A DNA stretch of 64,000 nucleotides from Acidimicrobiia bacterium. GTDB taxonomy: Bacteria; Actinomycetota; Acidimicrobiia; Spongiisociales; UBA11373. The notes under the pieces were generated by a model. That model saw only the letters and a program-made list of their open reading frames with translations. It did not search any database and had not been told where the DNA came from. Positions 578-19,105 of the stretch are shown piece by piece. Both the position numbers and the translations under genes were made by a program. Positions within the stretch are counted from its first letter, which is position 1; every line of letters starts with the position of its first letter. The stretch covers positions 4,099-68,098 of the forward strand of contig JAFGCH010000071.1 in the NCBI GenBank assembly GCA_016932695.1, written 5' to 3'.

Positions 578-701
578 GCCGCCATTCTGGCCGTTCGAGA
601 AGTGAGGGCAGCCGGGCGTGCTCGATATCTCATGGGGGAGGCTGTCCGGCGCCGGCAGCAATCACGGCGTAGGCTGCCCCCACATCTGTGGGGAGGTTGG
701 G

Positions 702-2195
702 ATGGAGCCTTTCGGCGACTATGAGCGTCACGACGCTACGGGCTTGGCCGACCTGGTCCGGCGCCGGGAAGTGCACCCGTTGGAGCTGTTCGAGGCGGCG
801 GCGCGGCGCATCGAGGAGCGAAACCCGGGGTTGAATGCCGTCGTCTACCCGGACTTGGAGCGCGCTCGCGCGGCGGCCGCCGCCGAGCCGCGGGAGGGAG
901 CCTTTGCCGGGGTGCCGTTCCTGGTCAAGGACATCGGCGCGGCAGTGGCCGGCCTCCCCTACACCGAGTCGTCCCATTCGCGCGTCGGCTACGTGGCTCC
1001 TGCCGACAACGAGATCGTCTCCCGCCATCGCCGGGCAGGGTTGGTCATTCTGGGCAAGACCAATACTCCCGAGATGGGCCTGGCGGTGATCACCGAGCCG
1101 GCATTGCACGGCCCGACCCGCAACCCCTGGGACCCGGACCGGACCCCGGGAGGATCCTCTGGGGGGTCGGCGGCGGCAGTGGCGGCGGGCATGGTTCCCT
1201 TGGCCCACGGCACCGATGGTGGCGGCTCCATCCGCATTCCCGCTTCCCATTGCGGCCTGTTCGGCCTCAAGCCGACGCGGGGACGGAGTACCTGGGGGCC
1301 GGAGCGAGTCGAGGACTGGCTGGGGCTCACCGAGCAGCACGGCCTCAGCCGGAGTGTGCGGGACTCGGCGCGCCTGCTCGACGCCACCTGCGGCGCTGCG
1401 CCCGGCATCCCGTACCGCTTGGCTTCTCCCTCACGTCCCTACGCCGACGAGGTGGGCGCTCCGCCGGGGAAGCTGCGCATTGGCTTCACAAGGCGAGCCC
1501 TGCTGGATGAGCGGCCGCAAGACCCCGAATGCGTTGCCGCCGTCGAGGAGGCAGCCCGCCTCTGCGCCGAGTTAGGCCACGAGGTCGCGGAGGTGCAGCT
1601 CCCCCTCGACATCCCCGTCATCGTTGATGCCTTCGTGACTCTGGCCGGGGTTCAGGCCGCCTTGGAGCTTGGGGTGAGTGAGCAACTCACCGGCCGCCGG
1701 GTTCGGCCCGGCGACGTCGAGCCGGTGACCTGGACTGCCCGGCTCATCGGAGACAAGCGAAGCGCCGCCGACCTTGGTCGGGCCCTCGGGATCATGCGGG
1801 ATCTCGGCCTGGCGATGGCGGCCTTCATGGAGGCCTACGACGTGGTCCTCACCGCGACCACCGCCCAGCCGCCGTGGCCCATCGGCCAGTACGACTTGAC
1901 GGGCGGACAACGCGCCATGCTCGGCGTCGTAGGGCGGGCGCCGGTGGGGCCCCTGCTGGGGGCGGTGGTGAAGCAGCTGTCGGGGGAGATCCTGGCCCAG
2001 ATGCCCAACACGCCGCTCTGCAACCTCACCGGGCAGCCGGCGATGTCGGTGCCGCTGCACTGGACCCCGGCCGGCTTGCCGGTGGGGGTCCAGTTCATCG
2101 GCCGGCTCGAGGAGGAGGGTCTGCTGTTCCGTCTGGCCTCGCAGCTGGAGGCGGCCCGCCCCTGGTGGGACCGCCGTCCGGCCTTGGCGGGCTGA
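702..2195 (+). CDS. amidase (amidase-signature family)
   Basis: ORF 618..2195 carries the GGSSGGSAAAVAAG amidase signature and a Ser-cisSer-Lys context. The start is probably ATG at 702 (MEPFGDY), preceded by GGGAGG. Confidence 0.85.
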   Translation: MEPFGDYERHDATGLADLVRRREVHPLELFEAAARRIEERNPGLNAVVYPDLERARAAAAAEPREGAFAGVPFLVKDIGAAVAGLPYTESSHSRVGYVAPADNEIVSRHRRAGLVILGKTNTPEMGLAVITEPALHGPTRNPWDPDRTPGGSSGGSAAAVAAGMVPLAHGTDGGGSIRIPASHCGLFGLKPTRGRSTWGPERVEDWLGLTEQHGLSRSVRDSARLLDATCGAAPGIPYRLASPSRPYADEVGAPPGKLRIGFTRRALLDERPQDPECVAAVEEAARLCAELGHEVAEVQLPLDIPVIVDAFVTLAGVQAALELGVSEQLTGRRVRPGDVEPVTWTARLIGDKRSAADLGRALGIMRDLGLAMAAFMEAYDVVLTATTAQPPWPIGQYDLTGGQRAMLGVVGRAPVGPLLGAVVKQLSGEILAQMPNTPLCNLTGQPAMSVPLHWTPAGLPVGVQFIGRLEEEGLLFRLASQLEAARPWWDRRPALAG

Positions 2196-2201
2196 GGCGG
2201 G

Positions 2202-4628
2202 CTACACCTCCACCTGCACGGCCACCACGGCTCCCGCCGGGGCGTAGGGCACCAGGGTGCCTTCGAGGTGGCGCCCATCCACGGTGACCCGCGGCGCGAC
2301 CCCGGTGCCGTGATTGGAGATTCCGATCCGGTAGGTGGCGCCTCGGCAGGAGCGCTCGACTTCGATTTCCGCGAGGTGGGCGGGGAGGCAGGGGGCGACG
2401 CGCAGCCCCTCCCACTCGGGCCGGACGCCCAGGAGGTGCTGGGTGATCGCCACCAGGTTCCAGGCCGCCGACCCGGTGAGCCAGGAGTTCTTGGCCTCGC
2501 CGTGCCGCGGGGCGTCCCGCCCGGCGATCATCTGGGCGTAGACGTAGGGCTCCAGGCGGTGGACCTCGGAGATCTCCTCGCGGAAGGCGGGGGCGATCTT
2601 GCTCCAGTACTCGAAGGCCCGCTCCCCGCGTCCCAGCCGGGTCTCGGCGATCACCAACCATGGGTTGGTGTGGCAGAAGACGCCGGCGTTCTCCTTGTAG
2701 CCGGGGGGATAGCTGGTGATCTCGCCCAGTTCGGGGTGATAGCGGGTGTAGGCGGGTTGGTGGAGCACCAGGCCGTGGGGGGTGTCGAGGCGGGCCCGCA
2801 CCGCGTCGAGGGCCCGGGCGGCCCGGCCGTCGGCCAAGCCCATGCCGGCCATCACACACATCCCCTGGGGCTCGATGTAGATCTGGCCTTCGGCGCACTC
2901 CCGCGAGCCCACCTTCTCCCCGAAGTAGTCGTAGGCCCGCAGGAACCACTCGCCGTCCCAGCCGTGGTCGGCCACCGCGGCGGTCATGCGAGCGGCCTCG
3001 GTGGTGGCGAGAGCGGCTTCTTCCGGCCTTCCGGCTGCTTGGGCCAGGCCGGCGTAGTCGGCAGCGGCATGGACGAACAGGCCGGCGATGAAGACCGACT
3101 CCGCGGTGCGCCCCGCCCGGTTCTGGGTGGTCTGGAAGGACTCGCCCGGCGCGCTGGAGAAACAGTTGAGGTTGAGGCAGTCGTTCCAGTCGGCCCGGCC
3201 GATGAGGGGGAGCCCGTGCGGCCCCAGGTTCTCCAGGGTGAAGTGGAAGGAGCGGCGCAGGTGCTCGAACAGGGTCGCGGCGTTCGCCGGGTCGTTGTCG
3301 AAGGGTACGGCCTCTTCGAGGATGGAGGGGTCGCCGGTCTCGCGCACGTAGGCCCCGGCGGCCTCGATCAGCCAGAGCGGGTCGTCGTTGAACCCGGAGC
3401 CGACGTCGTGGTTGCCCCGTTTGGTGAGGGGCTGGTACTGGTGGTAGGCGCTGCCGTCGGGGAACTGGGTGGCGGCGATGTCGAGGATCCGCTCCCGGGC
3501 CCGCTCCGGGACCAGGTGCACGAAACCCAGCAGGTCCTGGCAGGAATCGCGGAAGCCCATGCCCCGGCCGATGCCCGACTCGAAGTAGGAGGCACTGCGG
3601 GAGAGGTTGAAGGTGACCATGCACTGGTACGGATTCCAGGTGTTGACGATGCGGTCCACCCGGGGATCGTCGGAGCGCACCCGGCAGATGCCGAGCAGGC
3701 CCTCCCAGTAGGCCTTCAGGTCGGCGCGGGCTTCGTCTACGGCGACGGCGTCGGCGAAGCGGGCGAGGACGGCCCGTGCCGGGGCTTTGTTCGCCACGCC
3801 GGGGGCTTCCCACTTGTCCTCCGGAGGGACCTCGGCGTAACCCAGGACGAAGACCAGGTCGGCCTCTTGCCCCGGCGCCAGGCTCACCTCGACCTGATGG
3901 GAGGCGATGGGGAACCAGCCGCTGGCCCGGGAGTTGCAGGCCGCTCCGGCGAAGGGCACCTCGGGATGGTCCCAGCCGCGGCCCGGGCCGAAGAAGGCAT
4001 CCCGGTCGGTTTCGAAGCCGGCGAGGGGGGCATTCACCCCGTAGAAGGCGTAGTGGTTGCGGCGCTCCCGGTACTCGGTGACGTGGTAGATGGTGCTGCC
4101 TTCGACCTCGATCTCACCCAGGGAGAGGTTGCGCTGGAAGTTGGTCTGGTCGTCCAGGGCATCCCAGAGGCAGAACTCGATCAGGGAGAAGACCTGGATC
4201 TCCCGGCGCCGGCCGCTCCGGTTGCGCAGGCGCAGGCGATGCACCTCGGCGTTGGTCCCCATCGGCACGAAGTACAGGATTTCGGCCGCCAGGCCGTCGC
4301 GTTCGGCGGCTATCGAGGTGTAGCCGAGTCCGTGGCGGCACTCGTAGCGGTCCAGGGGGGCGCGCACCGGCGCCCAGGTGGGGCACCAGACCTCGCCGCC
4401 GTCGTTGAGGTAGAAGTAGCGGCCGCCGGTGTCGGCGGGGAGATTGTTGTAGCGGTAGCGGGTGAGGCGGCGCAGGCGGGCATCGCGGTAGAAGCAGTAG
4501 CCGCCTCCGGTGGAGGAGATCAGGCCGAAGAACTCCTCGGCACCCAGGTAGTTGATCCACGGGTGGGGCGTCTCGGGAGTGGTGATGACGTACTCCCGGG
4601 CGGCATCGTCGAAGTGCCCGAACCGCAT
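2202..4628 (-). CDS. GH94 glycoside phosphorylase (cellobiose/chitobiose phosphorylase-like)
   Basis: ORF 2202..4868 contains MRFGHFDD...[43 protein letters not shown]...GRYFYL, the conserved GH94 N-terminus, and is about 809 aa from the internal ATG at 4628. The upstream part of the listed ORF is GC-driven read-through. Confidence 0.85.
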
Positions 4629-4773
4629 CCCGTCCTCCCAGATTCGCCGGGGCCGCGCCGCCGAGCGGCGGTCGTGGGCCTGCGGCCAGGGTAGCCGGAC
4701 CGCCCCACCCCCAAAGGGCGCGGGAGGGGGAGAGGAACGGACTGCGGCGGCGGTCTGCCGCCCCGCAGCGAGG

Positions 4774-5469
4774 TCAGTCGTGCAGGCCGAAGCGATCGGC
4801 GATGGCCGCCGCCTCCTGTTCCCACAGCAAGCCGGGGTCGGGGTAAGCCCACTGGAGATGGCCGGCAACTTCGAGGGCGGCCAGGCCGTGCCAGTGCGCC
4901 CAGGCCCCCAGCATCACCGGCACGGCCGCTTCGGGGAAGCCGGGAGCGTGCCGGGTGATCTCGGCGGCTATCTCGGACTCCTCGGGGGTGGGGGGGCGCG
5001 CCGCGGGTGCTACCTGCAGCGCCCCACGGTTCCAGGCGTAGGCGGCGGTGCCGAAGAAGGCGTCGCCCATGCGGCGCACCGCGGCCACGGTGGGGCCATC
5101 TTCGGGGGCGGCGTACCCGGGGATGGGGGTGCCGAAGATGAGGTGGAAGCGGTTGGGGTGTCCCACCGCCCAATCGCGGTAGGCGAGAATGCCGGAGACG
5201 AGGCGCTTGCGGGGAGAGGGCCCGGCAACGCCGATGGCCTCCTCCACCGCGATGGCCAGGTCCAGGTAGGCGTCCGCCACCAGCGCAGTGAGCAGGGCGT
5301 CGCGGCCGTCGAAGTAGCGGTATAGGCCGGCCGGGCTCATCCCGATGGCGGCGGCCAGGCTACGGAGCGAGAGGTTGGGAGCGCCGCGGGCGGCGATCTG
5401 GGCCAGGGCCGCCTCTTTGATCTCGGCGAGAGTGGCTGCCCGATGCTGGGCACGTCGTCCGACCGGCAT
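4774..5469 (-). CDS. TetR family transcriptional regulator
   Basis: The C-terminal 231 aa of ORF 4774..6330 read [60 protein letters not shown], an N-terminal TetR HTH. ATG is at 5469. The rest of the listed ORF is artefactual. Confidence 0.85.
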
Positions 5470-5499
5470 GGCCCCAGCATAGCAGGCACCGTTTGCTCT

Positions 5500-5535
5500 G
5501 CGAACATGTATCGCTAATATGCGAGTAGCGTTCGC
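5500..5535. promoter_or_regulatory. imperfect palindrome GCGAAC-N5-TCGC-TAATAT-GCGA-N5-GTTCGC in the divergent TetR/oxidoreductase intergenic region; candidate TetR operator
   Basis: I read the nested inverted repeat directly: 6-bp outer arms and 4-bp inner arms, centred on an AT-rich core. It lies just upstream of the GGAGGAGAGAG RBS of the 5554 gene. Confidence 0.35.
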
Positions 5536-5553
5536 ATATCTAGGAGGAGAGAG

Positions 5554-6492
5554 ATGAGCGGTCTCCATGTGGTGTTGGGAGCGGGGGGCGGACTGGGTCG
5601 GGCCATCGCCGCCGAAGCAGCCTCCCGGGGTCTCCCGGTGCGGGCGGTCAACCGCGGGGGGGATGTCGACCTGCCCGGTGTGGCCGCGGTGGCCGCCGAT
5701 GTGGAAACGGCCGACGGAGCCGCCCGAGCCGTCAACGATGCCGGGGTGGTCTACATGGCCGCTCAACCCCCGTATCACGAGTGGCCGGGGAGGTTCCCCG
5801 GCATGCTGCGCACGGTCGTCGACGCCACGGCCGCCGCCGGTGCCCGGCTGGTGATGGTGGACAACCTCTACGGCTACGGACCGGACGCGGGACCGATGAG
5901 TGAGGCCGGTCCCGAGCGGGCGACCGATGCCAAGGGCCGGACGCGACGCGAGATGACCGGCTTGCTGCTCGCCGCCGACCGGGAGGGCCGGCTGCCGGTG
6001 CTCATCGGGCGCCTGTCGGACTACTTCGGTCCGCACGGCGACAACAGCACGGTTTCCGCCCTGGCGGTGATTCCGGGGGCCGCCGGCAAGCCCATCCGCT
6101 GGCCGGGCAGCCTGGACGCTCCCCACTCCGTGGCCTATCTGCCCGATGCCGCCCGGGCCTTCGTCACCCTCGCCGCCACCCCGTCGGCCTGGCGCCGTAT
6201 CTGGGTTCTGCCCCATGCCCCCGCCGTCACCGGCGGCGAGATTCTCGGCATGGTGAACCGGGCCTTGCCCCGGCCGGTGAAGACCGCCCGCCTGGGGATG
6301 GGCCTGCTCCGCCTGGCTGCCCCCTTCCACAGGCCTTCGCGGGAGATCCTGGGCATCGGCTACCAGTTCACCGCGCCGTTCGTGGCCGACGACGCGGCCT
6401 TCCGGCAGGCCTTCCCCGAGTTCGCCGTCACTCCGCTGGATCGGGCGATGGCCGAGACCGTCGCTTGGTACCGCAGCCGCCTCGCCGCCTAG
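5554..6492 (+). CDS. NAD(P)-binding oxidoreductase (NmrA-like / atypical SDR epimerase-dehydratase fold)
   Basis: It begins with the Rossmann motif VVLGAGGGLGRAIA and is 312 aa. It is divergent from the TetR gene, the classic regulator-target arrangement. Confidence 0.7.
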   Translation: MSGLHVVLGAGGGLGRAIAAEAASRGLPVRAVNRGGDVDLPGVAAVAADVETADGAARAVNDAGVVYMAAQPPYHEWPGRFPGMLRTVVDATAAAGARLVMVDNLYGYGPDAGPMSEAGPERATDAKGRTRREMTGLLLAADREGRLPVLIGRLSDYFGPHGDNSTVSALAVIPGAAGKPIRWPGSLDAPHSVAYLPDAARAFVTLAATPSAWRRIWVLPHAPAVTGGEILGMVNRALPRPVKTARLGMGLLRLAAPFHRPSREILGIGYQFTAPFVADDAAFRQAFPEFAVTPLDRAMAETVAWYRSRLAA

Positions 6493-6507
6493 ATGGGCGC
6501 CCCGGCC

Positions 6508-7281
6508 TCACTGCTCCAGCGCCAGTAGGGCCGCCCCGTAGGCGCCCATCAGCTGCGGATGCGGGGGCAGGACGACGGCCATCCCGGCGGCCTCCTCCAT
6601 CATCACCCGCACTCCGGCATTGAGGGCTACCCCGCCCGACAGGATCAGCGGCGGCTCCAGGCCCACGGTGCGGGCCATGGCCACGATGCGCCCCACCAGG
6701 GAGCGGTGCAGGCCCCGGATGATGGCGTCGAGGTCGGCGCCCCGGCCGATCAAGGAGATGATCTCCGACTCGGCGAAGACGGTGCAGGTCGAGGAGATGG
6801 GCTCCTCCTCTCGGGCCGCCAGCGCCCGGGTCCCGAGTTCGGCCACCGGGACCCCGAGGCGGCCGGCGGTGTGCTCCAGGAAGCGCCCCGTGCCGGCGGC
6901 GCACTTGTCGTTCATGGCAAAGTCCACCGGCCGGCCGCCCTCCCCGATGCGGATGGCCTTGGCGTCCTGGCCCCCGATGTCCACCAGGGTGCCGCCGTGG
7001 CCCAGGGCTCGGAACACGCCCCGGGAGTGGCAAGTGATCTCGGTGACGCAGCGCACCGCCACCCGGACGAGTTGGCGCCCGTAGCCGGTGGCCACCACGG
7101 GAGGCGGCTCTGCCGTCCCGAGGTCCGCGGCCAAGGCGGCCACCATCGCCGCCGCCTGCTCCTCCAGGCGGGGTCGGGTCGCCTCGAGGCGGGAAGCCAC
7201 CAACGTGCCGGTGGCGTCCACCGCCACCGCCTTGCAGGTGGTGGACCCGGCATCGACCCCGAAAGCCAGCACTCGACTCAT
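6508..7281 (-). CDS. CoA-substrate-specific enzyme activase (BadF/BadG/BcrA/BcrD / HgdC-like ATPase)
   Basis: MSRVLAFGVDAGSTTCKAVAVDATG... is the acetate/sugar-kinase-fold N-terminus typical of HgdC activators. ATG is at 7281 and the gene is about 257 aa. Its start overlaps the stop of the upstream gene (ATGA). Confidence 0.8.
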   Translation of the reverse strand: MSRVLAFGVDAGSTTCKAVAVDATGTLVASRLEATRPRLEEQAAAMVAALAADLGTAEPPPVVATGYGRQLVRVAVRCVTEITCHSRGVFRALGHGGTLVDIGGQDAKAIRIGEGGRPVDFAMNDKCAAGTGRFLEHTAGRLGVPVAELGTRALAAREEEPISSTCTVFAESEIISLIGRGADLDAIIRGLHRSLVGRIVAMARTVGLEPPLILSGGVALNAGVRVMMEEAAGMAVVLPPHPQLMGAYGAALLALEQ

Positions 7282-8597
7282 CCCCCCATCATTTCCACGA
7301 AGGCCTCCAGCCGCCCGGCGGCCTGCTCGGCGGCGAAGGCACGGGGGTCGTTGTGGTCGGCGTCGAGGAGCAACGCCGGCACCCCGACCTGGTTGACCAG
7401 CCCGTCGCGCTGGTCGATTTGGCCCAGCGAGTAGGGCTTGCAGGAGCGGTCGGAATGCAGGATGACGCCGTCGGCGGAGAAGTTGCGCACCATGGCGCGC
7501 ATCGCCTCGAGCTTCTGCCCGGCGGAGCGGTTGAGGATGGGGTGCAGGTAGACCCGGGCCATGGATGCGAAGGGGTTCGCCGGGTCCATCAGCGGGGCCA
7601 GTTCCCCCCAGGCGTGAGCGTAGGTGGAGGCCACGACGTTCACCCCGCGCTGCGCCAGCCACTGCGACAGTGGGCCGAGCCGGTACCAGATGGGCAGGTT
7701 GTCCCACAGCACCCGGTAGCGCTCCTCCCGAACGGCACCCACCCCGGAGGCGATGCGCCGGTCCACTTCGGCGAGCAGCATCCGGTAGTAGTCGGTGGTG
7801 GCCTGCTCCCCGCGCAGGTCCACGATGGGCCCCAGGTGGGTGAAGGCATCGAAGGCGGTAAGGGGGGAGGGGCGGTGGCGGGCCCGCTCCAGGATCTCCA
7901 GCCAGGTCTCGCTGGCCTCCTTGGCCCGGGCTACCACCCTGATGAACTCCTGTTCCGAGAAGGGCCGGCGGGCCGCTCGCTCGGCGACGGGCACGATGTC
8001 CTCCAGTTGACGGCGGACGTAGGCCACCTCGTGGGGCTGTGGCTGCGGCCCGTACTGGAAGGGAGTGTCCACCAGCAGCAGCGGGCAGCCGAAGTGGTCC
8101 GCCAGCACGCGGTACCAGTAGAGCACCGTCTGGCAGATGTTGGTGCAGCAAAGGAGCAGGTCGGGGCGGGGTAGGCGGCCGACCGGGGTCTCCCCGGAGA
8201 GGAGGGAGCCGATGTCGGTGCGGGCGTAGGAGCATATGTCGCGCGAGTAACCGGCGTCCTCGGCCACCTCGCACAGGTGCTGGGCCCGGCGGCGGGCGCC
8301 GCACAGGGCGGCATGGTTCTCCGGGTAGATAACGAAGAACCCCAGGGTGAGCAGGATCTCGGTGGGGGCGCCGCTGGTTACCCAGGCCACGGGACGCACC
8401 CCGGAGGCGTGGCGTCCCTCCAGGTAGTGGCCCGACATCATCTCCTTCATGCGGGTGATGCTGCGCAGCGGGGGGGCCAGCGGCCGCTCCGGGTCGCCGA
8501 AGCGGCGGTTCAGGCGCCGCTCATCCCGATAGCGCTGCAGGCGCAGTAGCGGTCGGCCGGCCAGCCGGTAGCCCAGCAGATGCCCCAGGCGGCTCAT
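7278..8597 (-). CDS. 2-hydroxyacyl-CoA dehydratase family protein (HgdA/BcrB-like subunit)
   Basis: The product from MSRLGHLLGYRLAG..., about 439 aa, carries conserved Cys-containing segments (ICSYARTDIG, LLLCCTNICQT). Its stop overlaps the downstream activase start and its start overlaps the upstream gene. Confidence 0.8.
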   Translation of the reverse strand: MSRLGHLLGYRLAGRPLLRLQRYRDERRLNRRFGDPERPLAPPLRSITRMKEMMSGHYLEGRHASGVRPVAWVTSGAPTEILLTLGFFVIYPENHAALCGARRRAQHLCEVAEDAGYSRDICSYARTDIGSLLSGETPVGRLPRPDLLLCCTNICQTVLYWYRVLADHFGCPLLLVDTPFQYGPQPQPHEVAYVRRQLEDIVPVAERAARRPFSEQEFIRVVARAKEASETWLEILERARHRPSPLTAFDAFTHLGPIVDLRGEQATTDYYRMLLAEVDRRIASGVGAVREERYRVLWDNLPIWYRLGPLSQWLAQRGVNVVASTYAHAWGELAPLMDPANPFASMARVYLHPILNRSAGQKLEAMRAMVRNFSADGVILHSDRSCKPYSLGQIDQRDGLVNQVGVPALLLDADHNDPRAFAAEQAAGRLEAFVEMMGG

Positions 8598-9673
8598 TGC
8601 AGCGTCTCCATGAACGCCTCCAAGCGGGTGAGGGTCTGCTGGCTGAGGCCCCCGCCCAGTTCGACCTCCAGGTGGAGCAGGGGGTAGCCGGCGGCGCCCA
8701 GATGGGCCCGCAAGCGGGGGATGTCGAACAGCTCCGGCTCGCAGAACTTGGGGTCGTAGATCACCAGGCCGCGGGCGCCGGTGGCCCGCAGCCGGGTCAG
8801 CAACTCCTGTGCTCGGGCGGCGATGGGGTCCCCGCGGGTCGGGTCGGGGGGGCCGCCGAGCAGCCGGGCGGCGAGGCGCTCGTACGGGTCGCCCCCGTCC
8901 TCGAGCGGGTAGACACGCCGCCACCCGCTCGCCAGGTCGTCGGCCACCACCCGGGCTCCCATGGCGGCGAGGTGTTCGAAGAGGTCGAGGGGCTCGGCCA
9001 CGATGCCCGACAGCATGAGGGGTAGGCCCCCGGGTGGGTCCCCGGCAGGGAGAGACCCGGCGACGGCGGTGAAGTCCTCGGCGGCAAGGAACTCCCGGGA
9101 GCGCACCACCGCGTAGAAGTCACGGTCGGTGACGGCCAGGCCCGCCCGGCGGGCAAAGAGGGAGGCCAGCGCCCGGTCGGCGGCGCCCTCGGCGGCGAAG
9201 GCTTCTTCCCAGGCGTCGTCGTCGGGGACCTTTCCGGAGATCCCCGCCAGGGACTCGGCCAGCCGATGCAGCTCGGCCGCCAGGAACTCCCCATCGACCG
9301 GCCGGCGGCCGCGGGGCAGGTAGAGGGTGAGGACCGGCGGGGTGGGCCGCACGAAGTCGCCGAGCACCGACCCCATCCCCTGGAGGGCGTCGCAGGTGTG
9401 GGGGATGAGTAGGGCATCCACCGTGTCGAGCCCGCCCTGCAGCAGGAAGGAGGTGGCGCGCACCACGATGTCGCAGGTGTAGGCCTGGAAGTGGCGGCTG
9501 CCTTCGTCGCGGGACACCCCCGGCGGGCCCCAGAGCTCGACGGGGTGGAAGCCGTGGGCGCGCAGCAGCGGGCGGGGGTAGTGGTAGGGAAGGACTCCGG
9601 CGACTCGGAGCCCGGTGGCGTGGGCGCGGGCCACGACCTCGCGACGGGTGGGCAGGACGGGCCTGGCGGTCAT
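8594..9673 (-). CDS. 2-hydroxyacyl-CoA dehydratase family protein (HgdB/BcrC-like subunit)
   Basis: This 359-aa product contains HFQAYTCDIVVRATSFLL...IPHTCDALQG, the Cys motifs of the family. It is translationally coupled to the next gene. Confidence 0.75.
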   Translation of the reverse strand: MTARPVLPTRREVVARAHATGLRVAGVLPYHYPRPLLRAHGFHPVELWGPPGVSRDEGSRHFQAYTCDIVVRATSFLLQGGLDTVDALLIPHTCDALQGMGSVLGDFVRPTPPVLTLYLPRGRRPVDGEFLAAELHRLAESLAGISGKVPDDDAWEEAFAAEGAADRALASLFARRAGLAVTDRDFYAVVRSREFLAAEDFTAVAGSLPAGDPPGGLPLMLSGIVAEPLDLFEHLAAMGARVVADDLASGWRRVYPLEDGGDPYERLAARLLGGPPDPTRGDPIAARAQELLTRLRATGARGLVIYDPKFCEPELFDIPRLRAHLGAAGYPLLHLEVELGGGLSQQTLTRLEAFMETLQ

Positions 9674-9752
9674 GCCGGGCCCATTCTGGTCCTTCGGTTC
9701 CGGGCGACGGAGGGAGTTTCCGCCCGGCGCAGCCTACGGCCCGGGCCGGGGC

Positions 9753-11198
9753 CTACTTCTCGCAGTCCTGCTCGTTCTCCGCCTTGCAGGTGTCGGTCCC
9801 CGCTCCTCCCTTGGTGGTGTCGATCTGCTGGCCGCCGATGAGGGTGTCGTTCCCGGTGCCCCCGATGAGCACGTCGTTGGCCCGCCCGCCGCAGACGAAG
9901 TCGCCGCCGCCCTTGCCTTCGTAGCGGTCCCGGCGGCCGAAGAGGTATACCACGTCGCTCCCCGCCGTCCCGGTGAGCCGGTCGGGGCCGTCGGTGCCGC
10001 GAACATTGATCGTTCGCCCGGCGCACATCTGATAGACGTAGAGGCGGGCCGGGATGCCGAACGCGCCGAACTTGAGCGGGGCCCCGGCCACCGCCCGTTC
10101 CTCGGCGAGAGCCACCGCTCCGCCGAAGTACTCGGTGTCGTCGCCGATGAGGTCGGTGCCCACGATGCGCTCCCAGCGCCACTTGCCGGCGGCCCGCTCA
10201 CCCAGATACACGGCCCCCGGCGGATCGGCGATCAGCACCCGCCCCCCAGCCGCCGCCAGATCGCTGCCGAAGGCCCCGGTCGGCGCGGGGGAGGGCGTTT
10301 TCCTCTCGAGGTACGCCCAGGTGGACCCGGACTTCCTCAGCACGAACAAGTCGTCTCCCGACGCTCCCACATAGATGAGGTCGCGGTCTATGGCCACCGC
10401 CCGGCCGAATACCTGTAAGGGGCTGTATCCGTCGGGGGAGAGGATCTTCTTGGAGGCCCAGGTGGTGCTGCCCTTGGTGAAGATCACCACCGCATTCGCC
10501 CCGGTGGCGCCGGCGACCACGGTGTCCCCCTGCACGGCGACGTCGGCTCCGAGGAACCCGTTGAGGGTCGGCTCGGCGTGGGTCAGGGTGGCGGTGTGGG
10601 ACCACACGCCGCCGGCGCGCTCGAATACGTACACCGCTCCGTCGAGGCTCCCGGCCTCATCGTCGGCGACCACCAGACGGTCGCCGTCTATGTCGACCCG
10701 GTAGCCGAAGTGGCTGGTGGCCCCGGCGGGGGCAGCCAGGATGGTCTCCTGCCACACCGCCCCGGCTTTGGTGTAGACGTACGCCTTCCCCCGGTTCCAG
10801 GTGCCCACCACCACCGTGGTGCCCGAGACCGCCACGCTTGTGCCGAAGAAGAGGAGCGGCGAGCCGTCGGAGGGGCTGAGGGTCGCCTCGGGCAGGCACC
10901 CCGCCGCCCGGCCGCAGCGGAACAGGTAGACCCGGCCGATCTTGTCCGTGTTGGTGCCCAGGCCCGGCTGGGGACCGTAACCGGGGGCTCCGGCTGCAAC
11001 CAAGATGCCGTCGGCGTCCACGGTGGCCAGGTCACCGAAGTCGGCGTAGTAGTCACCGTGGACCGTGTCGGCTTCGGGATTGTCGATACGGTCCTCCGCC
11101 GCAGCGGACACCGCCCGCCCGGGTGGGGCTCCCGCCGCCGGGGCTCCGGCCAGAGCCAGGAGAGCAAACAGGACCGCGACGGTTACGGCGCGCCGCAT
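9753..11198 (-). CDS. secreted FG-GAP (integrin-alpha-like beta-propeller) repeat protein with C-terminal RTX-type Ca-binding GGxGxD repeats
   Basis: It has a signal peptide (MRRAVTVAVLFALLALAGAPAAGA) and repeated FGxxVAxxGDxxVVGA / YVF motifs. The C-terminus carries GGTGNDTLIGG and GGAGTD. It is 481 aa. Confidence 0.7.
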   Translation of the reverse strand: MRRAVTVAVLFALLALAGAPAAGAPPGRAVSAAAEDRIDNPEADTVHGDYYADFGDLATVDADGILVAAGAPGYGPQPGLGTNTDKIGRVYLFRCGRAAGCLPEATLSPSDGSPLLFFGTSVAVSGTTVVVGTWNRGKAYVYTKAGAVWQETILAAPAGATSHFGYRVDIDGDRLVVADDEAGSLDGAVYVFERAGGVWSHTATLTHAEPTLNGFLGADVAVQGDTVVAGATGANAVVIFTKGSTTWASKKILSPDGYSPLQVFGRAVAIDRDLIYVGASGDDLFVLRKSGSTWAYLERKTPSPAPTGAFGSDLAAAGGRVLIADPPGAVYLGERAAGKWRWERIVGTDLIGDDTEYFGGAVALAEERAVAGAPLKFGAFGIPARLYVYQMCAGRTINVRGTDGPDRLTGTAGSDVVYLFGRRDRYEGKGGGDFVCGGRANDVLIGGTGNDTLIGGQQIDTTKGGAGTDTCKAENEQDCEK

Positions 11199-11230
11199 AG
11201 GCGTCTCCTTGGTGAGCGTGGCTGCAGAGG

Positions 11231-12217
11231 CTAGTCGCCGCTCTCGGTCGCCCGGTGCGGGGCGCCGGCGGGGTTTCGGCGTCGGGGCCGGCAGGTGTAG
11301 AAGGTGTGGCCTTCGTGCTGCTTCGCTACCAGCAGGCCGCCGGCCAGGAGGTTCTCCACGACCTCCCAGGTGGCGCCTTTGCGCTGCAGGAGGTCGCGAA
11401 CCGCTTCCTCACGCATGGGGTGCACGGCGCAGATACCGACCAAATCCCGGCCCACATCGCCGGAGGAGGCAAAGGCTCCTTCCTCGGGAGTGAACAGGTA
11501 GAAGACCTGGGGGAGCCGCTCCTCGAAGATGCTCCTTGCCTCGGCCACGGCGGCGGCGCCGGGGGCGGTGACCCCGGGCAGGGCGGTGGGGCGCAGGGGC
11601 AGCGCCAGGTGAGCCTCGGCCACCTGCGCTTCCATCAGGAAGTCGGCGGTAGCCTCGATCCGGGCCGGGTCGTCGTTGTACCCGGCGACCAGCATGGTCT
11701 CCGAGGCCAGGGTGCCGCGGAAGCGGGCGGCGAAGCGGCGGATCCCGTCGAGGATCTCGGGGAGGCGCAGAGCGGGGTGGGGACGGTTGAGGCGGCGCCA
11801 GGCGGCCTCGTCCACGGTGTCGACCTTCAGGGAGACCCAGTCGGCCGTCTCCAGGGCGGCGGATACTTCGGGCCGCCACACCAGCGAGGCGTTGCTGATG
11901 ACGGCGATGGGGATACCCAGGGGGCGGAGCCGGGCGATGGCCTCACCGAGGTTGGTGTCCAGCGTCGGCTCGCCGTCGGGAACGAACGTGAGGTAATCGA
12001 TGGCTTCCCCGGCGGCGGTGATCGCCGCCACCCTCTCGGCCACTCGCTCCACCACCTCAGTGGCCGGATAGAAGGCCCGGGGCTCCAGGGAGCGGTCCGT
12101 GGTGGCCCCCACTTGGCAGTAGACGCAGGCGTAGGTGCACACCTTGGGGGGGATGTTGTTGATCCCCAGGCTGCGCCCCAGCCGGCGGGAGGGCACCGGG
12201 CCGAAAGCGATCTCCAT
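11231..12217 (-). CDS. radical SAM domain protein
   Basis: MEIAFGPVPSRRLGRSLGINNIPPKVCTYACVYCQ contains the CxxxCxxC motif 27 aa from the ATG at 12217. The protein is about 328 aa with no C-terminal SPASM Cys cluster. The N-terminal 71 aa of the listed ORF are probably not translated. Confidence 0.8.
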   Translation of the reverse strand: MEIAFGPVPSRRLGRSLGINNIPPKVCTYACVYCQVGATTDRSLEPRAFYPATEVVERVAERVAAITAAGEAIDYLTFVPDGEPTLDTNLGEAIARLRPLGIPIAVISNASLVWRPEVSAALETADWVSLKVDTVDEAAWRRLNRPHPALRLPEILDGIRRFAARFRGTLASETMLVAGYNDDPARIEATADFLMEAQVAEAHLALPLRPTALPGVTAPGAAAVAEARSIFEERLPQVFYLFTPEEGAFASSGDVGRDLVGICAVHPMREEAVRDLLQRKGATWEVVENLLAGGLLVAKQHEGHTFYTCRPRRRNPAGAPHRATESGD

Positions 12218-12253
12218 GTCGTCTCCTCGGTAGCGGGCCGCCGCCCTCAGTAT

Positions 12254-12269
12254 CGTCCCCGGGGGGACG
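12254..12269. promoter_or_regulatory. inverted repeat CGTCCCC-GG-GGGGACG in the divergent promoter region between the radical SAM and NifX-like genes
   Basis: I read this 7-bp perfect inverted repeat with a 2-bp spacer directly. It is the only obvious symmetric element in the 175-bp intergenic region. Confidence 0.25.
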
Positions 12270-12392
12270 AGCGGCGGCGGCTTCCCGCCGTTGCCCGGAC
12301 GCGGGGGACGAGTTGAGGCCCGGGCGCCCGGCGCTACCCTCCCGCCCGGGCCGCCCGGCGCGGCCCGCCGACCCCTAAAAGGAGACCTCCGG

Positions 12393-12797
12393 ATGAAGAT
12401 CGCCGCCGTGTCGGAAAACGGCCGCACCATCGCCCAGCACTTCGGCCGGGCTCCCTACTACGTGGTGGTCACGGTAGAGGAGGGTGTGATCGTCCTGCAG
12501 GAGACGCGGGCCAAGGTCGGCCACAACGATTTCGCCGGGGGCACCGATCCCGGCCCGGGGGCCAAGCACCGCGCCATGGCAGACACCATCGGAGACTGTG
12601 CCGCCCTGCTCGCCGGCGGCATGGGGAGCGGAGCCTTCGCCGCCCTGCAGGCAGCCGGCATCGAACCGGTTCTCACCGACGAACGCGACATCGAGGCGGC
12701 CGCGGTGCGCTACGCCCGGGGCGAGCTGCCGAACCTGGCGGCCCGCCTCCATCAAGGCCGGGGGGAGCGCCACCACCGGCACGAGCATGACGACTGA
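12393..12797 (+). CDS. dinitrogenase FeMo-cofactor-binding domain protein (NifX/NafY/NifB-C-terminal-like, PF02579-type)
   Basis: MKIAAVSENGRTIAQHFGRAPYYVVVTVEEG...CAALLAGGMGSGAFAALQAAGIEPV is the typical fold signature. ATG at 12393 is preceded by AAAAGGAGA. Confidence 0.75.
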   Translation: MKIAAVSENGRTIAQHFGRAPYYVVVTVEEGVIVLQETRAKVGHNDFAGGTDPGPGAKHRAMADTIGDCAALLAGGMGSGAFAALQAAGIEPVLTDERDIEAAAVRYARGELPNLAARLHQGRGERHHRHEHDD

Positions 12798-13308
12798 GGT
12801 CCCCCGAGGCTCTGCGGGAGTCCCTCCGCGTCCGTTCTGCTTCATCGGGGTGGTCCACAGCCCCTTCCTCACCCCTAGTGGGACTCCGGCGCAGCCCGCG
12901 TATGCGGGGCCCGATGCCGTCGGCACCGTGGAGGTCTTCGAGGAGTACGCCGCCGGCTTGGAAGACCTCGACGGCTTTGAGCGCATCTGGGTGGTGTCTT
13001 GGTTCCATCGGGCGGGGGCGGCCCGCCTGCGGGTGATCCCTTACCTGGATTACGAGGAGCGGGGCCTGTTCTCCACGCGGGCACCGGCTCGCCCCAATCC
13101 GATCGGCATCTCCGCGGTGCGGCTGCTGCGACGCGAGGGGCGGCGGCTGCATGTGGCCGACCTCGACCTCATCGACGGCACCCCCGTCCTCGATCTGAAA
13201 CCCTATGCCGCCGCCTTCGACTCGTACCCGGGGAGCGGCGAGGGTTGGCTCCGAGGCCGCAAAGACGCCGATGGCCGAGGTGACGATCGATTCACCGCCG
13301 GCCCGTGA
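12787..13308 (+). CDS. TsaA/YaeB-like SAM-binding protein (tRNA m6t6A37 methyltransferase family)
   Basis: FCFIGVVHSPF...ERIWVVSWFH...FSTRAPARPNPIGISAVRLL...LDLIDGTPVLDLKPY are the family motifs. The ATG at 12787 overlaps the 3' end of the NifX-like gene by 11 nt. Confidence 0.8.
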   Translation: MTTEVPRGSAGVPPRPFCFIGVVHSPFLTPSGTPAQPAYAGPDAVGTVEVFEEYAAGLEDLDGFERIWVVSWFHRAGAARLRVIPYLDYEERGLFSTRAPARPNPIGISAVRLLRREGRRLHVADLDLIDGTPVLDLKPYAAAFDSYPGSGEGWLRGRKDADGRGDDRFTAGP

Positions 13309-13376
13309 GCGCCCCCGGCTTCCTTGGGGCCGACTGATCGGCCAGAATCACGGCCAGCAACTCCGGAGGTAGCAGC

Positions 13377-13877
13377 ATGCGGGTGTTGGTCGTCGCGGCG
13401 AGCAAGCACGGGTCTACTGCCGAGATCGCTACGGCCCTGGGAGAGGCCCTGGCGCGGCGGGGGCTCAGTACCACCGTGGCCGACGCGCGGGACGTAGCGG
13501 ATATCGAGGAGTACGACGCCGTCGTGCTGGGGAGCGCCGTCTATGCCGGCCGGTGGCAGAAGGCTGCGCGGGAATTGGCCGAGACCCACGGCGAGTTCCT
13601 TCGGTCCCGGCCGGTGTGGCTCTTCTCCAGCGGGCCGGTGGGCGATCCGCCCAAGCCCGAGGAAGACCCTGTAGACGTGGCGCAGATCACCACCATCGTC
13701 GGTTCCCGCGGCCACCGGGTGTTCGCCGGGAGGCTCGACAAGAGTCGGCTGAGCCTGGCAGAGCGGGCGATCGTGCGCTCTCTCAAGGTTCCCGAGGGGG
13801 ACTGGCGCAACTGGGATGAGATCGCCGCCTGGGCGGGGGAGATCGCCGACGCGTTGGCAGGAGGCGCCGCCGGCTGA
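13377..13877 (+). CDS. flavodoxin-like protein
   Basis: MRVLVVAASKHGSTAEIATALGEAL...YDAVVLGSAVYAGRW is the flavodoxin / HemG-like FMN-binding fold. It is 166 aa. Confidence 0.75.
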   Translation: MRVLVVAASKHGSTAEIATALGEALARRGLSTTVADARDVADIEEYDAVVLGSAVYAGRWQKAARELAETHGEFLRSRPVWLFSSGPVGDPPKPEEDPVDVAQITTIVGSRGHRVFAGRLDKSRLSLAERAIVRSLKVPEGDWRNWDEIAAWAGEIADALAGGAAG

Positions 13878-13901
13878 CTCGGGGCTCGCTCTACCCCGGG
13901 C

Positions 13902-14018
13902 TCAGCGGCCCCGGCGACGCTGCACGGCCCGCCCCGCGCCGGTACCGGCGGCCAGGACGCCCAGGCCCAGGGAGAGGAAGAGGGTCAGGCTGATCAGGAT
14001 GCTGGTGAGGGTGGTCAC
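13902..14018 (-). CDS. candidate small membrane protein (38 aa, GTG start)
   Basis: (GTG)TTLTSILISLTLFLSLGLGVLAAGTGAGRAVQRRRGR is a single hydrophobic helix with a basic tail. The third-codon positions are G/C in 35 of 37 codons, a strong coding signature in this genome. The SD spacing is poor. Confidence 0.3.
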   Translation of the reverse strand: MTTLTSILISLTLFLSLGLGVLAAGTGAGRAVQRRRGR

Positions 14019-14160
14019 GCCCCTGTGACGCCCCGCTGCCTTCGGCCGGTTCCCCGCGCCGGCTGGTGCCCCGCCGGGTAGCCTCCCCCAACTTGGTCGG
14101 GGAGCCGGTAATCGGCTGCCGGCGGTGGAGCGAACCTGAGGAGCAGCCCTCAGACGGCAC

Positions 14161-14579
14161 ATGCTGGGCGCGAGAGAAGGGGTCGAAGCGGCCCCGGGCG
14201 AGGCCGGCGACTTGGCCGAGGCGACGGCCGACTACGTGCGCCGCCTGCGGGCGGAGACCTTCGGGCCCGCCATCGACAGCATGGGCCACCGCACTTTCGA
14301 CGAGGCCATCGCGTTGGCTGGCGCCACCGCATGCGGCCTGGGGCGTTGCTGCGCACCGACGCTGCCCGGCCGGCCGGGCGGCTCTTCGAGGCGGTGCGGG
14401 CGGGGACCGTGTGGGGCAACGGCCCCCTTACCGACAACTTCGCTGGTCCCTTCGGCGGCCTGAAGGCCGGCGGGAACGCCCGGGAACTGGGGGAAAGGAA
14501 CCGGGAGGGCTTCCTCGAATCCGAACACGTCCGTTGGGACTTCGAGGATGCCCCTAACGGCTGGTGGCACCCGTGCTGA
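14161..14579 (+). pseudogene. 3' remnant of an aldehyde dehydrogenase gene (frameshifted, lacking the first ~350 codons)
   Basis: Two overlapping frames carry the ALDH C-terminus. ORF 14161.. holds ETFGPAIDSMGHRTFDEAIALAG. ORF 14331..14579 holds RAGTVWGNGPLTDNFAGPFGGLKAGGNARELGERNREGFLE. A frame switch near 14340 joins them. No upstream ALDH sequence exists, because the flavodoxin gene ends at 13877. Confidence 0.6.
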
Positions 14580-15705
14580 GCCGGGCGCGGCCCGCGCGGC
14601 GGCGGGCGCCTTCGAGCATCAGGGCTCCGGCGAGCACAGCCGCGACGATCGCCAGGAAGGTCGGGGCCGCCACCCGAGCGCCGATGCCCCAGGCCAGGCC
14701 GGCAACCACTCCTGCAGCCACCGCCCTCTCGGCCGGCAGGTGCCGGGTGGGGCGCCTATGGGCGATGGAGAAGGCGATGAGGACTGCTCCGATGCCCCCG
14801 GCCACGGCGGTGAGGCCGAAAGGCTCCAGATGCTCCGCAGGATGCTGGACGGCCTCTTCGAGTCCGGCGGCAAAGGTCACGATGCCTGCGACCAGCGGGA
14901 AGTGGGCGAAGGTGAAGAGGTCCCGGGCGACATGCCCCAGGTCGTGCAGATCGCGAGCGGCACCCAGCGCCCCTTCGGCAACTGCCTGGAACCAGTCGAA
15001 GTAGGCCCACCACAGCGCGGCGATGAGGGCGACGGCCAGGCCCACAGTCAAGGCCTGGGTGCCGGCTAGGCCTATCCGTGCCGCAGTGACTCCGACCGCG
15101 ATGATCGACTTCCCCAGGGCGATGATCACGATGAGCCCGTGGCGCTCCGCAAAGTGATCCGGGGCCACCCGGAATTCACCCCGCCCGGCTGCCAGAGCAC
15201 TGGCCACGTCTATCGCGGCAGCCGTCAGCTAGATCCAGGGACGGGCTTGCGGCGCGGCGAAACCCCCGGCGAGCACCACCGCCGGCGGCACGACTGCCAC
15301 CGGCAAGTAGGCGCGCAAGCCGGTGCAGTGATCGGGGTCGTGGCGCGGACCCAGACCGTACAGAGCTAGGCAGGCCAGGCGGACCAGGGCGTAGGGAACG
15401 GCGAACCAGGCTCCGGTGGCCCCGTAGGCCTCCGGGATGGCGGTTGCCACCAGGAGCGTCGCCGCGGTCGCCGCCAGGATCGCGGCTCGCCCACCGCGGC
15501 GGTTCAGGTCGATGGCGTTGCCGGCCCAGGTGTACTGGGACCAGGCCCACCAGACCAGCCACGCCATGAGCCCCGCCCGGCCCCAGCCTCCCAGGGTGTG
15601 ATCGGCCCGCAGCATGGCCGCCAGCTGGGTCACGGCGAATACGAAGACGAGGTCGAAGAAGAGCTCCAGGAAGGAGGCCCGCTTGGGGATTCCGCTCCCG
15701 CTCAC
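14554..15705 (-). pseudogene. LtrA (low temperature requirement A) family membrane protein interrupted by a single in-frame TAG at 15229..15231
   Basis: ORFs 15229..15705 (SFLELFFDLVFVFA, an LtrA signature) and 14554..15207 (FAERHGLIVIIALGKSI) are in the same frame. I translated the junction as ...QARPWI*LTAAAIDVASALAAG. Together they make about 383 aa, the normal LtrA length. Confidence 0.65.
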
Positions 15706-16331
15706 CGCCGGATCACCGCGAAGGCGAAGTCACGTCCCCAGCCCCGGCGGAAGGCGAGCCAGATCCACAGCGAGGCGAAGTTCTCGACGATGGCGACGGC
15801 TTCCGATCCCCCGAGGTCCGCTACTTCGAAGCCGAGGTCCGCGGCTAGGGCGGCTACCACCGACCGGCCCGCGTCGTCCCCGGCGATGGGGAGCACCGGA
15901 CGGGCGCTGCCGAAGCTGCCTCCTTCCAGGTGCTCGGCCCCGATGGTGTTGAACGCTTTGACCACTGCCGCGTCGGGGAACAGCGAAGCTACGAAGGCCC
16001 CTTGGGTGGTGAACGGGGCCGGCGGCGCGGTCGCCACTGCGTTGGTGGCGTCGACCACTACCACGCCGGGAAGAGGGCCGATTTCGGCGGCGGTGGCGGC
16101 GACGGCGGCAGCAGGAACGGCCAGCACGACCACGTGGGCGTCGCGACTCGCCCGGGCGCGAGAGGCCAGCGTGATGGCCGGCTGGGCGGCAACCGCAGCA
16201 CGGGCCGACTCGCCGTCGGGGCGGGCCGTCCCCAGACTGACTTCATGCCCCGCAGCGGCCAGGCCCCGCGCCAGAGCGGTGCCGACCCTCCCGGCTCCGA
16301 TGATTCCGATTCGCTTGACCGTAGCTGCCAT
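15702..16331 (-). CDS. npdG: NADPH-dependent F420 reductase
   Basis: MAATVKRIGIIGAGRVGTALARGLAAAGHEVSLGTARPD is the NpdG/Fno Rossmann N-terminus. It is 209 aa. Its stop overlaps the ltrA start (ATGA). Confidence 0.75.
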   Translation of the reverse strand: MAATVKRIGIIGAGRVGTALARGLAAAGHEVSLGTARPDGESARAAVAAQPAITLASRARASRDAHVVVLAVPAAAVAATAAEIGPLPGVVVVDATNAVATAPPAPFTTQGAFVASLFPDAAVVKAFNTIGAEHLEGGSFGSARPVLPIAGDDAGRSVVAALAADLGFEVADLGGSEAVAIVENFASLWIWLAFRRGWGRDFAFAVIRR

Positions 16332-16362
16332 GCGCTACCTCTTCGTCTGGTACCCCGAAGGG

Positions 16363-17127: not shown

Positions 17128-17287
17128 CGCAGGGCGGCACCGTAGGCCGTCCCGTGGCCTACCCAAGGGGCCTCCCGGCAGAAACAAGTGTTACCGCCGC
17201 GGAAAAGGGAGGGAAACGCCCCGGGGCGTACGTTCGCAGTTGCCCCGGGGGATTCCCGGGGGCCGACTGTGAGAGTGGAGGCACACG

Positions 17288-18988: not shown

Positions 18989-19105
18989 CCCATCCACCGG
19001 AGGAGTGGGGCGGCCCCTCCCGCCGCCCCACTCCCCAGACCGAAGCCGTGCTCTTGGAGAAGGTAGGGATCGTGTCCACCCAGCGAGGAAGACGGTAGGA
19101 AGGCC

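Follow-up and report, generated by a model that had tools for sequence, protein, structure and literature searches.

A putative 2-hydroxyacyl-CoA dehydratase and its activase in an Acidimicrobiia genome, members of an uncharacterised clade found in more than ten phyla

2-Hydroxyacyl-CoA dehydratases (HADs) are radical enzymes known from textbooks for their part in amino-acid fermentation by clostridia. They remove water from an (R)-2-hydroxyacyl-CoA by syn-elimination and need ATP in substoichiometric amounts, and in the usual HAD pathway their genes lie alongside those of a CoA-transferase and an NAD-dependent D-2-hydroxyacid dehydrogenase. Two other groups of the superfamily are the class I benzoyl-CoA reductases (BCRs), in which two distinct ATPases (A/D or P/Q) are required, and the double-cubane-cluster proteins (DCCPs), which are homodimers of one subunit with six cluster cysteines. 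Here we describe a triad of genes at positions 6508–9673 of a 64-kb stretch of DNA from an Acidimicrobiia metagenome-assembled genome (MAG; contig JAFGCH010000071.1), the whole of which is called the window below. The triad probably encodes a complete ATP-activated ketyl-radical HAD system from an uncharacterised orthologous clade that spans several phyla; what it catalyses, the route of its electron and the class of its substrate we infer from membership in the HAD family.

In HADs, each subunit carries one [4Fe-4S] cluster on three cysteines, and one cluster is held between the two activase monomers, each of which supplies two cysteines (PMC11574389). The BzdN subunit of BCR holds an [8Fe-9S] double cubane on six cysteines (C36, C73, C100, C263, C293 and C327), and BzdO holds a [4Fe-4S]-OH2 cluster on C95, C128 and C380, with Glu65 and His131 as the acid/base residues (PMC11971306). 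The HAD/BCR radical-enzyme family reaches past CoA substrates, for example in PlsA/PlsR (PMC12838417; PMC9702350). Activation and reductase domains occur twice each in PlsA, either fused or encoded in two genes, and its substrates are lipid esters; with the Lactococcus PlsA, E. coli grown aerobically produced plasmalogens (PMC12838417).

The triad and its products

An earlier note on this DNA, made from the sequence alone, had proposed three genes joined by two ATGA overlaps. Reading of the sequence confirms the positions of the three open reading frames (ORFs) and both overlaps exactly, all on the minus strand:

8594..9673, minus strand, β subunit of dehydratase component D (HadC/HgdB-like), 359 aa; Pfam HGD-D, NCBIfam and PDB matches
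7278..8597, minus strand, α (catalytic) subunit of component D (HadB/HgdA-like), 439 aa; Pfam HGD-D, PDB and Foldseek matches
6508..7281, minus strand, activase, component A (HgdC/HadI-like "archerase"), 257 aa; BcrAD_BadFG, TIGR00241 and PDB matches
8594..8597, minus strand, ATGA overlap of β stop and α start (ATG 8597-8595, TGA 8596-8594)
7278..7281, minus strand, ATGA overlap of α stop and activase start (ATG 7281-7279, TGA 7280-7278)
9674..9752, minus strand, 79-nt intergenic region 5′ of the β gene, which would hold any operon promoter or ribosome binding site

The three genes are translationally coupled through both overlaps, and their transcriptional order is β, α, activase. The name HgdCAB-like, which the note had given to the triad, thus fits its composition but not its order, which is B-A-C in Hgd nomenclature rather than C-A-B. 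The high-GC actinobacterial context is as had been stated, the DNA of this Acidimicrobiia MAG being 72% GC. At this composition long ORFs turn up in all frames, with 80 of them reaching 80 aa or more in 16 kb, so ORF length by itself is weak proof of a gene. The three triad ORFs are nevertheless real genes, as judged by their third-position GC (0.92–0.93), end-to-end Pfam matches and identity to GenBank entries: the proteins are 100% identical to MBN2113603, MBN2113602 and MBN2113601 of an Acidimicrobiia MAG, where they are already named 2-hydroxyacyl-CoA or 2-hydroxyglutaryl-CoA dehydratase.

A promoter scan of positions 6300–10000 revealed no σ70-like site. Rfam yielded no match in the window, and tRNA and promoter/terminator scans were likewise empty. 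The gene upstream of β (9753–11198) lies on the same strand as the triad, which may be transcribed by read-through from it.

The α subunit matched Pfam HGD-D (PF06050/IPR010327) end to end (E = 5.3e-69). Among NCBIfam models it scored 268 bits with HadB (cut-off 750), 178 bits with BcrB (cut-off 487), 116 bits with BzdO (cut-off 449) and 54 bits with the DCCP model NF040772 (cut-off 350). A PDB sequence search placed HadB first (3o3m_A, E = 1.1e-67), followed by MbdO (1.1e-36), BzdO (1.3e-30) and DCCP (6eno, 2.5e-4), the last match spanning the C-terminal half of α only. The AlphaFold2 model of α (predicted local distance difference test score 88, predicted TM score 0.89) gave Foldseek TM scores of 0.90 with HadB, 0.80 with MbdO and BzdO, and 0.73 with DCCP. 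Identity of α is 33.5% to HadB and 26.5% to MbdO.

Residues C122, C155 and C386 of α align to cysteines of HadB, correspond to C95, C128 and C380 of BzdO, and are invariant in 77 members of the clade whose distribution is given below. They are the predicted ligands of an active-site [4Fe-4S] cluster with one iron left open for the substrate. The conserved YPE93N motif, with its glutamate E93, is kept as well. Three residues past C155, V158 occupies the position of BzdO His131; it is a valine in HadB too and is invariant in the clade. The N-terminus of α is about 40 residues longer than that of HadB and is predicted to form a long, basic helix (residues 2–31), which is conserved in the clade. 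An invariant C99 was considered as a clade-specific ligand and rejected, the same cysteine being present in 60 of 124 family representatives.

The β subunit also matched Pfam HGD-D end to end (E = 4.7e-47). Its top NCBIfam model was HadC (92 bits, cut-off 700), and its closest PDB relative was HadC as well (3o3m_B, E = 1.5e-25). As few as three cysteines are present in the whole of β, C67, C94 and C311; all three align to cysteines of HadC and are 100% conserved (73–78 clade members), and they would be the ligands of an electron-relay [4Fe-4S] cluster. With three cysteines in total, β could therefore not hold a six-cysteine [8Fe-9S] cluster. At the position aligned to residue 249, β proteins of the clade have a cysteine in 82% of cases, often as a Cys-Cys pair with 250, and the window β carries Ser-Gly there (window about 8927–8929). 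In the clade this cysteine may provide the β cluster with a fourth, variable ligand.

The activase matched Pfam BcrAD_BadFG (PF01869; E = 3.6e-52) and scored 225 bits with TIGR00241 ("acyl-CoA dehydratase activase"), over the cut-off of 125. Its PDB matches were MbdQ (4e-54), HadI (4eht, 6.7e-52), HgdC (1hux, 6.2e-49) and 7yyl_E (6.8e-43). The ATPase motifs of the ASKHA superfamily are present as GVDAGST, DIGGQD and SGGVA. Cysteines C84, C127 and C166 are 100% conserved (56 clade members), and C127 and C166 would hold the [4Fe-4S] cluster that bridges two monomers. Pfam, NCBIfam and PDB thus agree with the earlier assignment of a two-subunit dehydratase family and its ATP-dependent, electron-injecting activase.

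Comparison with described systems

The closest solved relative of the triad, in sequence and in fold, is HadBC/HadI of Clostridioides difficile (3O3M/3O3N, 4EHT). Both systems have a paralogous PF06050 pair with aligned three-cysteine sites, the YPEN glutamate, valine at the BzdO-His131 position and a single activase of the homodimer type with two cluster cysteines. They differ in that the triad has the order β-α-activase, the additional N-terminal helix of α and hosts in uncultured, non-clostridial phyla; no CoA-transferase or D-2-hydroxyacid dehydrogenase gene adjoins it, and relatives have an AMP-forming ligase instead. HgdAB/HgdC of Acidaminococcus fermentans (HgdC, 1HUX) has the same three-component make-up, the likeness being measured on HgdC only (E = 6.2e-49, as above). 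Besides the B-A-C order, the triad differs from it in that neither a glutaconate CoA-transferase nor a glutaconyl-CoA decarboxylase is found in the window.

With BzdNOPQ/MbdNOPQ (8S02, 9G87, 9GAI), the triad shares the superfamily, the fold, the three cluster cysteines and glutamate of α, and an activase similar to MbdQ. However, these enzymes have two ATPases and the triad has one; its β is without the six-cysteine site, and its α is without an equivalent of His131. DCCP and its reductase DCCP-R of Carboxydothermus hydrogenoformans (6ENO, 7YYL) share with the triad the superfamily and an ATP-dependent ASKHA reductase partner, whereas the triad would be heteromeric with single cubanes, and DCCP is the weakest match among the solved relatives. 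PlsA/PlsR also belongs to the HAD/BCR radical family and combines activase with reductase/dehydratase domains. By description, it is a fused or two-gene, four-domain lipid-ester enzyme, in contrast to three separate single-domain proteins with a CoA ligase in relatives, and it is on this published architecture that PlsA is set apart here.

Taken together, two paralogous PF06050 subunits encoded side by side, three-cysteine sites in both and one TIGR00241 activase (component A, IPR008275) are the features of a HAD, and because of the pattern of cluster cysteines and the lone ATPase gene, the architecture is assigned to HAD-type dehydratases and to neither BCR nor DCCP. As judged from sequence, the count of cysteines in β and a single ATPase gene could serve as a simple rule to separate HAD from BCR.

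If the triad works as HADs do, a ferredoxin or flavodoxin of the cell would reduce the [4Fe-4S] cluster between the activase monomers (C127/C166). Upon ATP hydrolysis, the activase would inject one low-potential electron into the β cluster (C67/C94/C311), from which it would move on to the α cluster (C122/C155/C386), whose open iron would bind the acyl-CoA. Reduction of the thioester carbonyl would yield a ketyl radical, from which the 2-hydroxyl would be expelled, and a base, probably E93, would take the now-acidic β-proton. The electron would then go back to the cluster, and an (E)-2-enoyl-CoA would be released. Since the electron would be returned to the cluster, ATP would be needed only catalytically.

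Distribution of the clade, ligase partners and alternative functions

A word-indexed protein search retrieved 2607 homologues. Among the top 120, which were 60–100% identical, the named sources were MAGs of Acidimicrobiia, Actinobacteria, Acidobacteria, Deltaproteobacteria/Myxococcales, Nitrospirae and Nanopelagicales; the others were metagenome sequences. Scanning GTDB with one genome for each species yielded at least 572 confirmed loci, and thus the triad clade is present in at least 572 species-level genomes from more than ten phyla. The genomic context was analysed in the best 80 loci, all from MAGs; their hosts belong to Actinomycetota, Myxococcota, Binatia, Chloroflexota (Anaerolineae, Thermoflexales), WOR-3, Calditrichota, Melioribacteraceae, Acidobacteriota, Aquificota, Deferribacteres, Desulfobacterota and Schekmanbacteria. 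Within these 80 loci α is 50–87% identical, which over more than ten phyla argues for strong purifying selection. Sample names of clade loci refer mostly to mud, groundwater, sediment, hot springs and the subsurface.

In a search of 1.84 billion representatives clustered at 50% identity, the clade was covered by three or four entries (581, 495 and 443 bits), followed by a gap to 358 bits and then a continuum, with HadB-like proteins at about 232 bits. The clade thus appears to be a discrete, strongly conserved and uncharacterised HAD subfamily. The presence of the triad in the window had been called unexpected on the ground that such enzymes are typical of strict anaerobes. This view did not hold up: several Acidimicrobiia/Actinomycetota MAGs carry the triad at 68–87% identity, it is syntenic in three Acidimicrobiia contigs (L083–L085) and its genes are annotated in GenBank. 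The function of PlsA outside strict anaerobes and the wide distribution of the clade make the premise itself weak. The triad is ordinary for MAGs of the window lineage, and the window alone yields a correct annotation, not a discovery.

The activase gene, of which there is one in the triad, adjoins β-α in 59 of the 80 relatives, with a single activase-like match at each of these loci, in the same β-α-activase order. In four loci from Thermoflexales/Anaerolineae (L023, L027, L035 and L042) the activase is not beside β-α, and α is followed by genes for a conserved protein of about 220 aa and a glycosyltransferase of family GT4.

Neighbours of the triad in relatives were surveyed by clustering of ORFs across loci, called heuristically, and by a Pfam scan of 122 nearest-neighbour ORFs. 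AMP-binding was the only recurrent Pfam family (16 matches); no CoA-transferase family was recurrent among the 122 neighbour ORFs. Ten orthologous FadD-like AMP-forming ligases, from WOR-3, Thermoflexales, Anaerolineae, Melioribacteraceae, Desulfurellales, Calditrichaceae and Thermodesulfobacteriota, are 52–83% identical to each other, their identity tracking that of α. Two further partial ligases lie at contig edges, which brings the number of ligase-linked loci to 10–12. The ligase gene precedes β on the same strand, and often overlaps or abuts its start, in L029, L037 and L039, as is a non-orthologous ligase gene in L055; straight after α, in the usual activase slot, in L048, L050 and L051; and convergently downstream in others. 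The top NCBIfam models of these ligases are long-chain-fatty-acid-CoA ligases, not benzoate-CoA ligase. Weaker hints come from a GlcD-like FAD-dependent D-2-hydroxyacid oxidase gene divergent from the triad in L081/L082 (a 79% identical relative) and from an enoyl-CoA hydratase and an acyl-CoA dehydrogenase near the triad in L093. In L081, neighbours of the GlcD-like oxidase gene encode an AmmeMemoRadiSam-system radical SAM enzyme (TIGR04337, 614 bits), another radical SAM protein and a Memo protein (L081 positions 5071–7106 and 4273–5067).

Because the operons of relatives hold a FadD-like ligase and no recurrent CoA-transferase, we take an aliphatic (R)-2-hydroxy acid, with activation by a ligase, to be the most likely substrate. 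An ATP-costing ligase in place of an energy-saving CoA-transferase suggests a better fit to respiring or non-fermenting hosts than the CoA-transferase logic of clostridia. We tentatively put forward, as a possibility open to considerable doubt, that the FadD-like ligase, the HAD α-β pair and the activase form a cross-phylum module through which aliphatic 2-hydroxy acids, perhaps of medium or long chain length, would lose their 2-hydroxyl independently of O2. If so, such acids would be fed into β-oxidation by bacteria that do not ferment and that live in sediment, groundwater and hot springs, the module would be an anaerobic counterpart of α-oxidation, and many "bcrBC" calls in metagenomes of Acidimicrobiia, Anaerolineae and Myxococcota would share one systematic annotation error.

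Several observations weigh against a complete HAD system with a ligase-activated substrate. Sequence cannot tell an electron-recycling dehydratase from an electron-consuming reductase. Every clade member examined (the best 80 genome matches, the best 120 proteins and four clade representatives) comes from a MAG or a metagenome contig, as do the four nearest out-clade representatives, and no clade member is characterised. A literature search turned up no paper that connects HADs with Acidimicrobiia or Anaerolineae. The identity of α to HadB is low, and both the HadB and the HadC scores are below cut-off. With the clade far under every NCBIfam equivalog cut-off, it follows that its members are not orthologues of any characterised HAD. 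In a neighbour-joining tree, computed without support values and without HgdA, FldB, LcdA and PlsA, the clade formed one branch, apart from HadB and far from MbdO. Linkage to the ligase was seen in only about 15% of the sampled loci and in none from Actinomycetota or Myxococcota. As to the window, tblastn did not find the orthologous ligase in it, and the genes annotated in its 64 kb include no CoA-ligase and no CoA-transferase, both of which had been proposed as genes to look for, and no NAD-dependent D-2-hydroxyacid dehydrogenase; the ligase of this genome would have to lie outside the window.

An alternative is that the triad encodes an enzyme like a class I BCR, which would spend ATP stoichiometrically on the dearomatisation, or some other reduction, of an aryl- or enoyl-CoA. 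Many clade members bear the JGI label "bcr-type benzoyl-CoA reductase subunit B/C", and a study of Acidimicrobiia UBA5794 takes "bcrBC" in sediment MAGs as benzoyl-CoA reductase and as a sign of aromatic degradation (PMC12008989). The top PDB match of the activase is MbdQ, marginally ahead of HadI, and AMP-forming ligases are typical of BCR pathways. The ligases linked to the triad are, however, FadD-like and not benzoate-CoA ligase-like, families of the dienoyl-CoA pathway are not among the recurrent neighbours, and there is one ATPase gene where BCRs need two different ones. Scores with BcrB/BcrC (178/66 bits) and BzdO/BzdN (116/46 bits) are to be compared with cut-offs of 422–487, V158 stands at the position of BzdO His131, as in HadB, and a three-cysteine β would be unable to form the six-cysteine [8Fe-9S] cluster of BzdN (PMC11971306). 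On this evidence we consider a BCR-like reductase improbable. If the "bcrBC" genes of the sediment MAGs (PMC12008989) belong to the clade, the three-cysteine β and the single ATPase argue against the aromatic reading. The benzoyl-CoA reductase names given by JGI may lead environmental surveys to report anaerobic breakdown of aromatics too often.

The ketyl-radical machinery might also act on a non-CoA carbonyl, for example of a lipid ester by analogy with PlsA/PlsR, or carry out a different transformation. That the family extends beyond CoA substrates (PMC12838417; PMC9702350) is consistent with this, as are the lack of conserved metabolic neighbours of the triad in most loci, the clade-conserved basic helix at the N-terminus of α, which HadB lacks, and the distance of the clade lineages from classical amino-acid fermenters. 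Yet the PlsA-type layout has four domains (PMC12838417), and here three small proteins with one activase domain are found; α is much nearer to HadB than to any other solved structure; and an orthologous acyl-CoA ligase in the operon in 10–12 loci favours a CoA thioester. Such a function therefore seems quite unlikely. A DCCP-type small-molecule reductase with its own reductase partner, despite the common superfamily and weak matches to NF040772 and PDB 6eno/7yyl, is effectively refuted by cysteine count and subunit composition (two different subunits with a three-cysteine site in α and three cysteines in β, versus a six-cysteine homodimer) and is scarcely credible; where the earlier note had allowed that DCCP-type proteins might be the best homologues, DCCP proved the most distant by NF040772 score, PDB E value and TM score.

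A HAD-type dehydratase thus remains the probable function of the triad. Its significance lies in the apparently intact HAD machinery of a conserved clade across uncultured Acidimicrobiia, Myxococcota, Chloroflexota and other phyla, where the partner would be an ATP-consuming ligase, and the clade is a defined, testable target in the search for a new HAD substrate.

Genes around the triad

The triad of the three syntenic Acidimicrobiia contigs L083–L085 is about 82% identical to that of the window, and these contigs share with it the amidase (73%), the Opp-type ABC transporter (87–94%) and the GNAT protein (77%). Genes outside the triad are listed below:

618-2195, plus strand, amidase flanking the triad; same arrangement in L083–L085
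2202-4868, minus strand, GH94 family phosphorylase (cellobiose/chitobiose-phosphorylase-like; Pfam E = 2.7e-161), between the triad and the amidase
11231-12430, minus strand, radical SAM protein, 399 aa; top NCBIfam model viperin-like, 35 bits (cut-off 180)
12291-12797, plus strand, Nitro_FeMo-Co (NifX/NifB-C-terminal-like) protein, 168 aa, divergent from the radical SAM gene
14554-15705, minus strand, split LtrA gene: 15705 to 15229 matches Pfam LtrA 1–150, and 15207 to 14554 matches 169–353
17288-23018, plus strand, five-gene Opp/Dpp-type peptide ABC transporter; same arrangement in L083–L085
23676-24677, plus strand, double-GNAT acetyltransferase; same arrangement in L083–L085

The amidase and the Opp transporter were considered as partners of the triad and rejected: they are syntenic in L083–L085 only and not in L081, L086, L088, L091 or L093, and the arrangement thus reflects synteny of the lineage. 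In other, more distant relatives the flanks of the triad are wholly different. The GH94 phosphorylase gene is not at the equivalent position in L083–L085.

A block of about 7.4 kb (9753–17190), which contains genes for an FG-GAP/RTX repeat protein, the radical SAM protein, the Nitro_FeMo-Co protein, a Flavodoxin_5 protein, the split LtrA and a pirin, is missing from L083–L085, where the distance from β to the Opp substrate-binding gene is about 400 bp. Its absence there points to an insertion in the window genome. The radical SAM (11231-12430), NifX/NifB-C-like (12291-12797), flavodoxin (13377-13877), FG-GAP/RTX and NAD-epimerase genes were rejected as partners of the triad, since they were found beside it in 0 of 80 relatives. 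The calls of the divergent radical SAM and Nitro_FeMo-Co ORFs overlap by 140 nt, and thus at least one of the two starts was probably miscalled. The split of LtrA, in turn, appears to be due to a frameshifted pseudogene or to an assembly error near 15207–15229.

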